This document shows, piece by piece, positions 32,881 to 38,178 of a stretch of 57,156 bases of DNA. The position numbers and the translations under genes are program-made. Source of the DNA: Promethearchaeota archaeon. GTDB lineage: Archaea; Asgardarchaeota; Lokiarchaeia; Sigyniarchaeales; SOKP01. How positions within the stretch are numbered: position 1 is the stretch's first letter; every line of letters starts with the position of its first letter. The stretch spans positions 1-57,156 of the forward strand of contig JBHLOI010000018.1 of assembly GCA_048940645.1 (NCBI GenBank), written 5' to 3'. The notes below the pieces were generated by a model. The model was not told the DNA's origin. It searched no databases and worked only from the letters and a program-made list of their open reading frames with translations.

Positions 32881-34014
32881 GTGTTAAATATAAAAATCGG
32901 TAAAGTTTATGGAATAGAAATCAAATTACATATAAGTACATTATTGATAATTGGTTTAGTGGGATTTTATGCCGCAAATTTTTATGCTACGTTAGTTCCT
33001 ACCGTGTCTTTGATCGATTTACTATTGGTTGGAATAATTAATGGATTAATCATATTAATATCAATATTAGTTCATGAATTGGCTCATTCTATTGTAGCCC
33101 AAAGATATGGATTGAAAGTTAAAGAGATTGAACTATATTTATTTGGAGGAGCATCAAAGATAGAAGAAGAACCTAGAACTCCTAAAAGTGAAATAATCAT
33201 TTCTATCGTTGGACCACTCTCTAGCTTAATAATTGGAGGTTTATTATTAGTATTCTTGTATATTTTTCCACTTATTTTGCCTTTAGGAGTAGCTATAACT
33301 TTATTTTACTCTGGAATTTCTAATTTAGGGTTAGGGCTATTTAATCTATTGCCTGCGTTTCCAGTTGATGGTGGTAGAATCTTAAGAGCAACCCTGTGGG
33401 CTAAAAGTAAAAATTTAGTTTCTGCTACGAAAACTGCCTCAAGAGTTGGGAGTTTTTTTGCTTATGGACTTATGATTTATGGTTTTATACAATTCCTATT
33501 ATTCGGACTAAACGGGATATGGTTAATTCTTATTGGAACATTCCTAAATAATCAAACAAGACAATCGTATCTTCAGGTTTTAAATGAAGAATCTCTTTCA
33601 CACTTGAATGCTAAAGATATGATTAGTTTACCAAGATTAGAAATACCTTTCGATTTAACTTTATCAGAAGCAGTTAGTCAATATTTTATGCTGTATAAAA
33701 AAGATTATTTTCCGGTAATAAAAAACTCCTTAATTATTGGAATTATACATATTGATGACATTAAAAAAGTTCCCTTTGAACAAAGATCAGAAATTATTGT
33801 AGGATATAGGATGAGAAAATTGAAGGATTTTCCTTCTATTTATGATGATGATTCAGGAAAACAAGTTATGAAGAAATTTATACAAATGGAGACTAAACCG
33901 CAATTACTTATAGTAAAAGAACATGGAGACGATTTTATTTTAGGTTTGATTGGTAAAGATGATTTAGTATCGTCTCTAAGATTTTGTCAGTTAAATCCAG
34001 AAAAATGTAAATGA
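32881..34014 (+). CDS. site-2 protease (M50) with CBS domains
   Basis: HELAH, NLLPAFPVDGGRI, C-terminal CBS pair. Confidence 0.94.
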   Translation: MLNIKIGKVYGIEIKLHISTLLIIGLVGFYAANFYATLVPTVSLIDLLLVGIINGLIILISILVHELAHSIVAQRYGLKVKEIELYLFGGASKIEEEPRTPKSEIIISIVGPLSSLIIGGLLLVFLYIFPLILPLGVAITLFYSGISNLGLGLFNLLPAFPVDGGRILRATLWAKSKNLVSATKTASRVGSFFAYGLMIYGFIQFLLFGLNGIWLILIGTFLNNQTRQSYLQVLNEESLSHLNAKDMISLPRLEIPFDLTLSEAVSQYFMLYKKDYFPVIKNSLIIGIIHIDDIKKVPFEQRSEIIVGYRMRKLKDFPSIYDDDSGKQVMKKFIQMETKPQLLIVKEHGDDFILGLIGKDDLVSSLRFCQLNPEKCK

Positions 34015-34106
34015 TCTCTTTTTTTTCTTTAAAATTAAATTTGATTAGTTCTACTATATTATTAAAGAATCTAAAAAGGAAAATAGATTTACTATTAGTG
34101 GTATCT

Positions 34107-34718
34107 ATGCTCTTATATAATGTTGCTGAAAATGGCGCATTGAGAAAGACTTCCATAGTTAATTTTAATGATAGTAGTAGGGTATATCTCATTGATGAGG
34201 AAAAAATAATTTATTTATGGCAAGGAAACAAAGCATCTAAAAAGAAAAAGGACCTAAGTTTGAAAAGGGCACAATTATTGAACAAATCAAGAGATGATAC
34301 TGCTAAAATTCAGATAATTCAACAAAATAGTGAGTTTGGAGGATTTTTAGCAATTATGGATGCTTTAAAAGAAGGCCAAATCAAAACTGGAACCGTTAAA
34401 ACTCGTCCTGAATTAGAATTAGAAATAGATGATACTAAAGAACTTATTGAAGCAGGATTGGAACCAGATCTAATTGCTGAGATTAATTTAGCGGCTTATG
34501 AACTCGCTCAAAAAAATAAAGATTATAAATCTCTATGTAGAGATCTTGCTAAGCTTCAATTATCTATAACGAAGGGAGCAGAAAAACCACCTGAAAGCGA
34601 AATTAAAAATAAGACAGAAATAATTTTTAGATCATCCTCTACTTATGAAGAAGTTTGTTGGTTGATCTCGGAGTTAAAAATTTTATCAAGTAAAAATTAT
34701 TTTAAGAAAAAAGTTTAA
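34107..34718 (+). CDS. single gelsolin-like domain protein with C-terminal helical extension
   Basis: VYLIDEEKIIYLWQGNKASKKKK...IQIIQQNSEFGGFL is the gelsolin pattern; ATG at 34107 preferred. Confidence 0.75.
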   Translation: MLLYNVAENGALRKTSIVNFNDSSRVYLIDEEKIIYLWQGNKASKKKKDLSLKRAQLLNKSRDDTAKIQIIQQNSEFGGFLAIMDALKEGQIKTGTVKTRPELELEIDDTKELIEAGLEPDLIAEINLAAYELAQKNKDYKSLCRDLAKLQLSITKGAEKPPESEIKNKTEIIFRSSSTYEEVCWLISELKILSSKNYFKKKV

Positions 34719-34730
34719 TTAGAAAAGGTA

Positions 34731-35264
34731 TTACTTATTCAAGTTTTCTAATATCTTCTCAAATTCTTTATAATCTGGCAGTGTTTCAAGATAAATTGAA
34801 ATATTCCTAATGTTTACATTCCTCTCAAAAATATATTTTTTAATAGTTTTGAGGATAAGTTCAGCACAAGTTTGAGCATTGAAACCAATAACCTCTAAAG
34901 AAAGCGGAGGAAAACAGATTGACTTTATGTTTTCTTTTTGATCAGCTAATTTTAATGAATTCCAAATTGCTAAAATTAATTTCTTTTTATCATGACCAGA
35001 TCGAATATGTAATATAAATTTTGAAGTAAGATCTCCTCCAGATGTTATAACTACCTCTCCCATAGGAATATTTGATATTTTTTGCATTATTCGATTACAT
35101 TCAACTTGTACTTGTGATCCTGCTTTTCGTAATACTCTGCATCTTATTGTTCCAGAAGGTAAGAGCCGACTATTAGTAGGAATAACTATAGCATCGCATT
35201 CTGCGTTAACTATATCATTTACGGCGATCTCTATAGTTGTATCATTAAAGATTAGTTTATTCAT
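34731..35264 (-). CDS. macro domain (ADP-ribose-binding) protein, divergent
   Basis: DIVNAECDAIVIPTNSRL, VVITSGGDL, SICFPPLS. Confidence 0.85.
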   Translation of the reverse strand: MNKLIFNDTTIEIAVNDIVNAECDAIVIPTNSRLLPSGTIRCRVLRKAGSQVQVECNRIMQKISNIPMGEVVITSGGDLTSKFILHIRSGHDKKKLILAIWNSLKLADQKENIKSICFPPLSLEVIGFNAQTCAELILKTIKKYIFERNVNIRNISIYLETLPDYKEFEKILENLNK

Positions 35265-35383
35265 TAAATATCTAACTAAACAAGTGATATTTATATTTTT
35301 TTAGTATTTTTATATTGTTCAAACACCAAAAATGAGTGTTTTTACTAATTTGTTAAAAAAAATATATAGTGCTGGTTTTTTGC

Positions 35384-35902
35384 TTAAAACCCTGATTTAT
35401 TCATTTCTATTATTTTTTTTATCATTTTTTCAATATTGGTGTCTATAGTTTTAAGAACTTTCTTATAAATAGCATAACTCGTGTAATAAGGGTCAATAAT
35501 GTCTAAATCGCCTTTATTCTCATTAAATTCTTTCAATGTAAGAGTTTTTTTATCAATGTCGCTAATTTGGGGATAATTTCTGATGATATCGTTTGCTTGA
35601 GATTGTTCCATTGTTATTATTAAATCTTGTTTTTCTAATAGAGTTCTATTTAGAATCTTAGGCCTAAAATCTGAAGATTTTATCCCTTTTAGATCTAAAT
35701 ATTCTTTAGATTCTGGTTGCATATAGAAAAAAGCGTTAAAAAAGCCACAAGAATCAACATATAAATTAATATCATATTTTTTAGCATAATATTTAGCTAA
35801 ATACTCTGCTACCGGACTCCTTGCCGTGTTTATGGTTTTTTTGTGTTTTACAAATTAAAAATTTCCAGCACAGACAAAGAGTATATTTTTAATGTTAGCC
35901 AT
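35384..35902 (-). CDS. low-molecular-weight protein phosphatase/ArsC-family protein, split by a 33-nt insert (exons 35902-35863 and 35829-35384; 161 aa when joined)
   Basis: ATG 35902 gives MANIKNILFVCAGN, then an insert with in-frame TAA, then TARSPVAEY...DSCG...DLIITME...IIDPYY; removing the insert gives CAGNTARS. Confidence 0.85.
35830..35862 (-). other. candidate BHB-type (tRNA-endonuclease-spliced) mRNA intron, 33 nt
   Basis: mRNA reads GUG-CUGG-AA^A-UUUUU...AAAA-CCAU-AA^A-CAC: two AAA bulges around a 4-nt central helix, an exon-exon stem and an intron hairpin; the cuts restore frame and motif. Confidence 0.75.
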
Positions 35903-36014
35903 GAGTAATCGTGAAATAAAATGGAATTAAAGTTTTTTTAATATTTCTTACATAAATATTAAATTAATGGATATCTAAAAACATATTATATTCAATTATT
36001 GCTAAATCTCAAGG

Positions 36015-37646
36015 ATGTCAACATTTAAATTTAAAAGTAAGATTAGTAAAGTTGTTTTTGCAGATATTGCTCTTCCAAAAATTAGTTTTCTATATTTACT
36101 TCTTTCTTTTAGTTCTCTCGCTATAATAACAGAAGCATTGCTCTTCAAATACGCCTTTATAGTAGAGTATCAAGCAGCAATTAATTTAGAAGTATTTATT
36201 ATTTTATTCATAATTAGTATTAGCTTTTTAGTATCTGGAAGAGTAGTAGATTTTATAAAGAATAGAACCGCTTCATTTAATTATATTTTATTCTTAACCA
36301 TAATAGGATTGTTTTTAACGGTCTTCAGTGAGCTTATTGTGTATTACACTGGTTTATTCATTATCCTCCTTACTTTGCCTCTGCTAATTGTATTATGGTT
36401 CACAATTTTGGTCCATGAAACCAATATATTAAATCGAGGTCGTGTTACTGCCTTTTTAATAATCATTAGTTTTGTTATTGGAACCACGGGAGCATTTTTC
36501 GTACTTTTCGAGCCATTATACAACTATCTTTATATTTTAGAGGGTGTTATGTTAATCTTAATATGGATTTTATCTAAGAAATATAAATATCTTGAAACAG
36601 AAGAAAGGTTAAGATCTAAAAAAAAATATTTCAAAATAATCTTTGAAAAGCATTTCTTTCGTTATTCCTCAAGCTTTACAATCTTAAGTTTTATTTTAGG
36701 CAATCTATTAGCAACTCACGGATATGATATGGACTTATTAGTATTTTGTATAGCATCTTTTTTTTATTTAATTGCTGCTGGTTGGTTTTTAGATAATGTA
36801 GGTAGAAAAATCTCAATTGTTTTAGGAATATTATTATTGTCTTTTTTTCTAATATCGTCGGGATCTTTTATAGGTAGTGAATATATTTTCGGAATCCCGA
36901 AAAGGATATTTCTTGGAATACATTACGCATTTTCCATTACTCCATTATTATTAGCAATTTTTACAATATCTGGAGATTTCTCAATAGAAAGAGGAAATTT
37001 GAAGTTTAGGGGAAGAATTAATGGTTTATTTATGGGGCTTATGTTTTTAGGTATAATTATTGGCTTTGTTTTTACAAGATGGATAAGTGATCTACCCGGC
37101 GTGGATCTTTTTATACCAAATTTTTCAAGTTTAATAAATTCATTTGCTTTAGTTATTTTATTAGTGTGGATGATGTCAATGAAAGAATTTCTAGTCTCAA
37201 AGGAGAGAAATTGGGCATCGACGATAAAGATCCTTTATGTTTTTAACAATACAGGTGTGTGTTTCTATAGTTATAATTTTGAATCAAAAGATCAGAAACT
37301 ATATGCTAAAGAAGATGAATGTATGGATGAGGATTTAGTATCAAGTGCCTTAACAGGGGTTTTATCAATTTTATCCGAAATTACTCATAGTAAAAAGAAA
37401 TTGAGGAGAATAGAAAAAGATGATGATTATCTATATTTCAGTTATGGAAAGAATCACGTTGCTACTTTAATTTCATCAATGGATCTGCCTGTTTTAACTC
37501 GTAAACTCGATAATTTTTCAAAGGATTTTGAAGATAAGTTTGATGAAGATCTTAAACAATTTGTTGGTAATATGACACCCTTCGAATCGACCAAATATTT
37601 AATTAAGAAGAATTTTACTCAGAAATATGCATTTCTCACAGAATAA
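36015..37646 (+). CDS. MFS-like multi-TM protein fused to a C-terminal longin-like domain
   Basis: About 12 TM with MFS loop motifs (GRVVDFIKNR, GWFLDNVGRK); C-terminal LYVFNNTGVCFY...FEDKF...FVGNMTPF. Confidence 0.75.
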   Translation: MSTFKFKSKISKVVFADIALPKISFLYLLLSFSSLAIITEALLFKYAFIVEYQAAINLEVFIILFIISISFLVSGRVVDFIKNRTASFNYILFLTIIGLFLTVFSELIVYYTGLFIILLTLPLLIVLWFTILVHETNILNRGRVTAFLIIISFVIGTTGAFFVLFEPLYNYLYILEGVMLILIWILSKKYKYLETEERLRSKKKYFKIIFEKHFFRYSSSFTILSFILGNLLATHGYDMDLLVFCIASFFYLIAAGWFLDNVGRKISIVLGILLLSFFLISSGSFIGSEYIFGIPKRIFLGIHYAFSITPLLLAIFTISGDFSIERGNLKFRGRINGLFMGLMFLGIIIGFVFTRWISDLPGVDLFIPNFSSLINSFALVILLVWMMSMKEFLVSKERNWASTIKILYVFNNTGVCFYSYNFESKDQKLYAKEDECMDEDLVSSALTGVLSILSEITHSKKKLRRIEKDDDYLYFSYGKNHVATLISSMDLPVLTRKLDNFSKDFEDKFDEDLKQFVGNMTPFESTKYLIKKNFTQKYAFLTE

Positions 37647-37656
37647 AATCAAATTT

Positions 37657-38178
37657 TTATTCCTCTTCCTCGGAATTATTCATTTTTATAATTTTTTCAA
37701 TTACTTTGATTACTCCTTCTTCTATTCTTTGTAATACTTTGTTATATTCTATCTCATCCAAATAAAAAGGATCTTTAATTTCTAAATTTTCAGTTTCACC
37801 TGCAAATTCCATTAAAAGAAAAACTTTATTATTCAAATTCGCAATGTGCTTAAATTTTCTTTTTAATTTGTTAATATGCCATTTTCTTTCAAATCCTAAT
37901 ATAAGGTCTTGATTTTCAATTAAAACATCATCAACATCTTTTGCCTTAAAATCGCTTATATTAATTCCTTTTGAATTAAGATATTTCAGTGTTCCCTCTT
38001 GAGGTTCCTCATAATAATGATAAAGGCCAGCAGAATCAAACTGAATTCCTTTCAATTCATCTTTATATTTAGTTCTTTTTAGCCATTTTGCTAAATATTC
38101 AGCAAAAGGACTACGGCAAGTGTTTCCAGAGCATAAGAAAAGCACGTTATGGATTTTAGTCAATTTAGTCCTCATCAA
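37657..38178 (-). CDS. low-molecular-weight protein phosphatase/ArsC-family protein (intact paralogue)
   Basis: VLFLCSGNTCRSP, DSAG, IKDPF. Confidence 0.93.
   Translation of the reverse strand: MMRTKLTKIHNVLFLCSGNTCRSPFAEYLAKWLKRTKYKDELKGIQFDSAGLYHYYEEPQEGTLKYLNSKGINISDFKAKDVDDVLIENQDLILGFERKWHINKLKRKFKHIANLNNKVFLLMEFAGETENLEIKDPFYLDEIEYNKVLQRIEEGVIKVIEKIIKMNNSEEEE

Follow-up and report, generated by a model that had tools for sequence, protein, structure and literature searches.

A bulge-helix-bulge (BHB) intron in the crenarchaeal cbf5 pre-mRNA was reportedly described by Watanabe in 2002. Such an intron is contained in the cbf5 pre-mRNA of Crenarchaeota belonging to the Desulfurococcales and the Sulfolobales (PMC2738675, Yokobori 2009). 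As of 2020, cbf5 was the sole case of a BHB intron described inside an archaeal coding sequence, alongside one case in a 5' untranslated region (UTR) of Haloferax (PMC7714728). Our literature searches up to late 2026 returned no report of BHB introns in Asgard coding sequences, and a preprint from 2026 that deals with the tRNA introns of Asgard archaea makes no mention of mRNA (bioRxiv 10.64898/2026.10.13.758758). Here we describe a low-molecular-weight (LMW) phosphatase gene whose catalytic loop is split by a 33-nt insert. The gene lies in a stretch of 57,156 nt, hereafter the window, that constitutes positions 1 to 57,156 of contig JBHLOI010000018.1 from a Promethearchaeota archaeon (assembly GCA_048940645.1). 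An earlier reading of this DNA, made from the letters alone (hereafter the sequence-only reading), had proposed endonuclease-type splicing of an mRNA other than cbf5. The comparative evidence (13 further inserts, covariation, frame restoration and the presence of both EndA and RtcB genes) supports that proposal, and we consider it very likely that the insert is removed from the phosphatase mRNA by the tRNA-splicing pathway.

The predicted phosphatase intron belongs to the same mechanism class as the cbf5 intron and is not a member of the cbf5 family. Both are short introns in an archaeal coding sequence that have a BHB or relaxed motif, involve a heteromeric endonuclease, are missed by gene callers and show lineage-specific presence and loss. 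In contrast to cbf5, the host gene codes for an LMW phosphatase, the phylum is Asgard and the insert lies inside a catalytic loop. Moreover, its length at the one site varies from 20 to 33 nt; it is found in a paralogue as well and has spread by patch recombination. Splicing of cbf5 has been proven by experiment, whereas that of the phosphatase is predicted from sequence. With archaeal tRNA introns, the phosphatase insert shares the motif, the predicted enzymes, a similar size range and a motif half built by the exons. Unlike them, it lies in an mRNA, where codons form the exon half of the motif; constraints from the protein and from the RNA structure therefore act on the same bases. Like the 5'-UTR intron of HVO_1309 in Haloferax volcanii, it would represent a non-tRNA, non-rRNA substrate of the endonuclease on an mRNA (PMC7714728). 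The HVO_1309 intron is located in an untranslated leader and interrupts no reading frame, whereas the phosphatase insert does interrupt one. In the unconventional splicing of the eukaryotic HAC1 and XBP1 mRNAs, Ire1 cuts and RtcB or Trl1 ligates. The phosphatase case would resemble it in the spliceosome-independent removal of a short mRNA segment, the RtcB-type ligation and the altered translation that results. HAC1/XBP1 differs by its endonuclease (Ire1), its motif of two stem-loops and its established regulatory role.

The phosphatase gene extends from 35902 to 35384 on the minus strand, with the 33 nt at 35862-35830 interrupting its Cys-x5-Arg loop. It is composed of the following parts.

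35863..35902, minus strand: exon 1, 40 nt from the ATG to GGA-A, encoding MANIKNILFVCAG and the first base of the Asn codon
35830..35862, minus strand: predicted BHB intron, 33 nt, with an in-frame TAA
35384..35829, minus strand: exon 2, 446 nt including the stop codon; contributes AC to the Asn codon and encodes the phosphatase from TARSP... onward

From the ATG at 35902, the frame reads MANIKNILFVCAGNF, the in-frame TAA and then FVKHKKTINTARSP, and translation of the unspliced RNA is limited to a peptide of 15 residues. The insert is positioned between GGA-A and AC-ACG, after which the matching frame picks up again as TARSPVAEYL... and continues to the stop at 35384. Exon 2 alone matches the Pfam profile LMWPc (PF01451) with an E-value of 1.3e-19 and a score of 71.2 bits (curated cut-off 23.2), over positions 10-142 of the 144 in the profile. 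The first nine positions alone are missing; they correspond to the beta-strand and the catalytic-loop Cys, and exon 1 therefore supplies that start. Together, the minus-strand translation and the LMWPc match bear out the initial observation of a 33-nt, TAA-containing insert that breaks the C-x5-R motif. In-silico removal of 35862-35830 yields an open frame of 161 residues with both CAGNTARS, which is present only once the insert is excised, and DIIDPYY, which holds the Asp of the DPYY loop. The Cys-x5-Arg-Ser/Thr and DPYY motifs are catalytic in the LMW phosphatase family. The predicted spliced junction is GCTGGAAACACGGCAAGG, its unspliced counterpart is GCTGGAAATTTTTAATTTG, and the predicted peptide across the junction is NILFVCAGNTAR. 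As anticipated from the sequence, automated annotation truncates this frame, with public gene calls of 149 and 112 residues instead of 161.

The catalytic loop of this phosphatase and of its homologues is CxGN-T-xRS, with a Thr following the Asn, which we take to be a mark of YwlE-type protein arginine phosphatases rather than of tyrosine phosphatases. The name protein-arginine-phosphatase is given to some homologues in public records. An NCBIfam search of the protein returned only weak names, below threshold.

We then considered the fold of the transcript around the insert. In the BHB geometry, each cut takes place after the second base of a bulge. The elements of the motif in the window allele are listed below, with a slash at each predicted cut.

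35869..35881, minus strand: outer helix, 5' strand, CUCUUUGUCUGUG, covering the codons for Leu-Phe-Val-Cys and a G from the Ala codon; its partner is 35817-35828, and one U is bulged
35865..35868, minus strand: central helix, 5' strand, CUGG, exon; pairs with 35832-35835
35862..35864, minus strand: 5' bulge AA/A, predicted cut between 35863 and 35862
35836..35861, minus strand: intron interior; a U-run paired to an A-run as the inner helix, plus a small hairpin
35832..35835, minus strand: central helix, 3' strand, CCAU, intron; three pairs and a C·U mismatch
35829..35831, minus strand: 3' bulge AA/A, predicted cut between 35830 and 35829
35817..35828, minus strand: outer helix, 3' strand, CACGGCAAGGAG, made of the Asn-Thr-Ala-Arg-Ser codons

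The minimum-free-energy (MFE) fold of 35805-35890 contains the outer exon-exon helix, a central UGG/CCA core, the bulges and an inner helix. In it, the central helix is separated from the inner helix by an unpaired AAA on the 5' strand and from the outer helix by three unpaired bases on the 3' strand, and the inner helix consists of a U5/A5 pairing capped by a small hairpin. It thus agrees with the sequence-only reading as to the exon-exon stem, the 4-nt central helix with its C-U mismatch, the two AAA bulges and the hairpin formed by the intron itself. Canonical cuts on this allele would join ...CUGGAA to ACACGG... The product that had been foreseen, CAGNTARS within a protein of 161 residues, is correct. 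The claim that the cuts fall at exactly the given positions stands less well: four cutting registers give the identical product in the window allele, because AAA is repeated at both ends of the insert. Relatives with 20-nt alleles, described below, allow a single register only, since no other remakes the conserved Asn. A scan of 35300-36100 against Rfam found no known RNA family.

The decisive evidence for the predicted splicing is, in our view, the comparison with 13 other inserts. Search A used an intron-less orthologue as the query against the 42 genomes of the genus; search B ran a degenerate pattern, which forced the amino-acid motif alone, against the 154 genomes of the order. Further alleles came from protein look-ups and one metagenome scan. 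With the window allele, 14 distinct insert sequences of 20, 21, 22 or 33 nt were found between GGAA and AYAC. Among the 42 genus genomes the carriers are four orthologues and two paralogues, and metagenome contigs provide the others, including additional 21-nt and 20-nt alleles. The reversed-pattern control of the degenerate search gave 0 matches, and in the 154 order genomes nothing outside the genus matched the pattern. A blastn search of the insert against the host genome (G000) found no other copies; hence, it is not a repeat family. The main alleles are the following.

G023: orthologue, 21-nt insert
G010: orthologue, 21-nt insert
G021: orthologue, 20-nt insert
G020 and G018: tandem paralogue, 37% identical, 21-nt insert
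L058 (metagenome): 33-nt insert with four differences from the window intron and a perfect CUGG/CCAG helix; protein identity 87%
L080: 22-nt allele, in three assemblies
20-nt class: G021, L070, L072 and L073

The insert of the G020 and G018 paralogues is at the identical codon, with GUGG/CCAU as its central helix. The interiors of the introns are otherwise highly divergent among alleles, and the bulges are nearly always AA/N and AN/A. Cutting each of the 13 alleles with a whole gene on its contig between GGAA and AYAC yields an intact phosphatase of 156-171 residues with CxGNTARS. In the partial L073, the spliced frame is open up to the end of the contig, and L080, which was read at the junction only, has the same junction as the others. 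The 20- and 22-nt inserts would shift the frame if left in, and the BHB cut restores it; these lengths rule out a tolerated in-frame insertion. A self-splicing intron was also rejected, as the insert is far too short.

The 20-nt alleles also bear on programmed translational bypassing, a process known from phage T4 gene 60 and from the yeast mitochondrial byp elements. The ribosome would leave the mRNA at the Asn codon and resume at a matching codon where the insert ends. The window allele does offer a possible take-off AAU and an AAC just before ACG, with a stop codon soon after the take-off site and a hairpin within the insert. However, the 20-nt alleles (G021, L070, L072 and L073) have UAU before ACA and present no landing codon matching GGA, nor one matching the codon that follows GGA (AUU in G021 and L070, AAU in L072 and L073). 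A hop would be unable to remake the conserved Asn in them, whereas the BHB cut does. Moreover, the conserved features are two bulges and a 4-bp helix, and bypassing does not need covarying helices. We know of no archaeal bypassing, and we consider it an extremely improbable explanation.

We assessed pairing in an alignment of 13 sequences (A1) by counting pairs and by 500 shuffles, with the caveat that the structure was derived from the tested sequences, which are related. Standard pairs occupy 95.7% of the cells, compared with 38-52% when the partners are slid by 1-3 columns. The 12-pair outer helix, with its one bulged U, is paired in 97% of cells, and the inner helix in 90%, with two covarying pairs (22-44 and 23-43 of A1). 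Four pairs are altered on both sides. At the outer pair adjoining the central helix, the window allele has G-C and L058 has G-U, with A-U as the third state. Orthologues begin the central helix with C-G and paralogues with G-U, and the two inner-helix pairs alternate among G-C, A-U and U-A. None of the 500 shuffles reached the covariation score. All four central pairs are formed in L058, G023, G010, L065, L068, L069, L080 and both paralogues, and three of the four in the window allele, the 20-nt class and L067. The orthologue alignment that the sequence-only reading had called for, to look for insert presence or absence and compensatory changes, thus came out in its favour: all 13 inserts keep the BHB with covariation.

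The codons that build the exon half of the motif follow the same pattern. All seven alleles that were found without forcing those bases have the set CTC TTT GTY TGT upstream and AGG AGY downstream; among 46 intron-less orthologues and paralogues, a single gene uses this set (p = 5e-8, a value inflated by relatedness). The duplex energy of the outer helix ranges from -9.3 to -14.1 kcal/mol in alleles with the intron, against a mean of -3.9 in 31 intron-less orthologues. In the G023 clade, the intron-less L019, L083, L084 and L085 have exactly the predicted spliced junction in their DNA. In L079, an intron-less sister allele, ACT GGA..GCA AGG has become ACG GGC..GCT CGT, a drift such as would be expected from relaxed structural constraint after loss of the intron.

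These distributions indicate that the intron is an optional, heritable element of the phosphatase family within one Asgard genus, vertical in some clades, precisely lost in some alleles and moved between lineages by patch recombination. A mosaic gene of G021 illustrates the latter. L059 (G021:C10) and the intron-less L008 (G017:C87) share ~96% identity beginning 30 nt past the Cys codon and are unrelated upstream of that point (39/90 bases), with the breakpoint directly after the exon half of the motif. The same 5' module is found on other backgrounds in L072 and L073, and the intron therefore travels with a recombining patch. That patch extends from the upstream region through exon 1 and the intron into the first codons of exon 2. 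The paralogue of G020 and G018 carries the intron, and the adjacent orthologue lacks it and retains some of the pairing codons, which suggests ectopic conversion between the tandem copies; patch recombination has probably transferred the intron into the tandem paralogue. A tree-based count of eight gains or losses was rejected as a number of independent events, since the 5' end recombines.

Several observations weigh against splicing, in general or of the window copy. The fold of the window allele has a z-score of only -2.04, and 10 of 200 shuffles fold equally well. When the intron alone is shuffled, 0.3% of trials match the central and inner pairing plus an A at -2, and the strict motif occurs in the host genome at 1.4e-5 per position and length (6225 matches / 4.4e8 tested). 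By itself, the window fold is weak to moderate evidence. With its C·U mismatch (3/4 central pairs), this allele is also the least canonical of the set, and the window copy could splice poorly. A genome-wide scan for strict BHB motifs with an open-frame joining test, which the sequence-only reading had suggested for other interrupted reading frames, found no excess at the true register over shifted registers, in a background dominated by gene boundaries that makes the scan uninformative. The exon flanks are partly shared by descent and patch recombination, so that the codon association and the tree count overstate independence. The low ratio of nonsynonymous to synonymous substitution rates (dN/dS) of the 20-nt class is uninformative as well, because its intron is shared via a recombined patch.

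Three further points would fit a pseudogene, in which a DNA-level lesion (slippage, a short insertion or a recombined patch) always stays in the RNA and the dead or dying gene is tolerated thanks to paralogues. The host genome has two further LMW phosphatase genes, and loss of the split gene might therefore be tolerated. The insert is polymorphic, and the majority of orthologues lack it. Finally, the spliced product of the window allele has no identical entry among 5.8 billion public proteins, where only the truncated calls are found; the full-length public proteins of the G023 clade trace to intron-less contigs, one of them labelled metagenome and two ambiguous as to DNA or cDNA. A lesion leaves most of the comparative data unexplained, however. 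Fourteen different inserts occupy one codon with a common motif and covariation, and none of the 13 whole-gene alleles has a second lesion. The frame-shifting 20- and 22-nt forms have been retained on diverged backgrounds, and the helix-forming synonymous sites are frozen in insert-bearing alleles only. Among intron-bearing alleles overall, dN/dS is 0.14-0.32. Within the G023 clade and between G000 and L058 it is 0.22-0.32, with dS up to 0.47; these values are informative because the intron diverged in step with exon 1 and with the remainder of the gene. They show purifying selection in two clades that inherited the insert vertically. Orthologous inserts that lack BHB pairing and evolve with dN/dS near 1, which the sequence-only reading had named as a sign of decay, are thus not what we found. 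Altogether, we regard a pseudogene as very unlikely.

Splicing by the tRNA pathway requires EndA and RtcB, and the host genome encodes both. It is a metagenome-assembled draft of 3.8 Mb in 126 contigs, with a G+C content of about 30%. The initial guess of a probable Asgard archaeon is right: a gelsolin-domain neighbour points to a Loki-type genome, and close homologues are named Lokiarchaeota or Promethearchaeota. Two genes of the PF01974 (EndA) family are present (G000 C2:15367-15966 and C25:9345-9959), one with the Tyr/His/Lys catalytic triad and one without the His, a pair that is compatible with an alpha-beta heteromer; there is one RtcB gene (C7:28167-29474). Asgard archaea have an (alpha-beta)2 EndA with a loop insert tied to a broad substrate range (PMC5829648). 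An enzyme of such broad specificity would accommodate the 3-of-4 central helices of the window allele and of the 20-nt class. ARAGORN found only 13 tRNA genes in the host genome, six of them with predicted introns whose boundaries are unreliable. This low count agrees with the heavy interruption of tRNA genes in Asgard archaea (bioRxiv 10.64898/2026.10.13.758758).

In the proposed mechanism, the pre-mRNA would fold by pairing of its Leu-Phe-Val-Cys codons with the Thr-Ala-Arg-Ser codons in the outer helix, and the CUGG of the Ala-Gly codons would pair with the CCAU close to the 3' end of the intron in the central helix. Two AAA bulges would thereby be exposed on opposite strands. Heteromeric EndA would cut each of them after its second base, and RtcB would ligate GGAA to ACACGG, which would remake the Asn codon and the catalytic loop CAGNTARS. 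We infer cleavage and ligation in the cell from the anatomy of the gene, the conservation and covariation of the motif, the restoration of the frame, purifying selection and the presence of the enzymes.

EndA might instead cut the motif without the halves being productively rejoined, so that the insert would serve as a site of mRNA destruction or gating. Consistent with this idea, a BHB in the 5' UTR of Haloferax HVO_1309 influences expression (PMC7714728), and an intron-less paralogue is located only 1.8 kb from the split gene (37672-38160, minus strand, upstream, about 40% identical to it). However, cutting alone leaves unexplained that the frame and the active site are exactly restored in every whole allele, including those with insert lengths that are not multiples of three, and the genome does encode RtcB. 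We therefore judge a cut-only site to be very unlikely and favour full splicing.

A last concern is the draft nature of the metagenome-assembled genome, as the insert might be an error of assembly or sequencing. Six contigs from independent assemblies, among them contigs of GCA_048941225.1 and GCA_048938325.1, carry it base for base, and homologous inserts are found in unrelated metagenomes. Such an artefact, which the sequence-only reading had wished to see checked, can for all practical purposes be excluded.

Besides the phosphatase, the host genome contains two other interrupted genes. The only match to Ribosomal_S27 (S27ae) that we found (L077, G000 C88:49914-50015, minus strand) has a frame-shifting insert of 31 nt with a UAUG/CAUA central helix, AU/A and AA/A bulges and a 9-bp inner hairpin. 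Its excision in silico restores ADHYDRSSCGKCGYT. The genome-wide scan missed this insert because it required A-rich bulges and a strong outer helix. The only PFK-family match found (L078, G000 C37:3362-4333, plus strand) is interrupted by two in-frame stops, a TAG and a TAA. It is conceivable, as a tentative extension about which we are slightly more doubtful than confident, that mRNA splicing by EndA and RtcB is routine in this genus. Mini-introns of 20-40 nt would then lie in conserved motifs of many genes, persist because constrained codons make up half of their recognition motif, and move as exon-intron patches from one allele or paralogue to another by recombination.

Asgard archaea are the closest prokaryotic relatives of eukaryotes. 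As a second, independent case in a coding sequence, the phosphatase intron would mean that mRNA splicing by the tRNA machinery is not a crenarchaeal oddity. It also shows how gene callers shorten such genes and provides a natural system in which RNA structure and protein constrain the same codons. With its presence/absence polymorphism, precise losses and patch transfer, it could serve as a tractable model of the gain, loss and spread of introns without a spliceosome.

The two phosphatase genes of the window are separated by a gene at 36015-37646 (plus strand) coding for a 543-residue multi-pass membrane protein with a soluble C-terminal domain and a weak MFS match (E 0.0025). On the other side, the split gene is neighboured by genes for a macro-domain protein (34731-35264, minus strand) and a gelsolin-repeat protein (34011-34718, plus strand). 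This phosphatase/macro/gelsolin trio is preserved on the metagenome contig L058.
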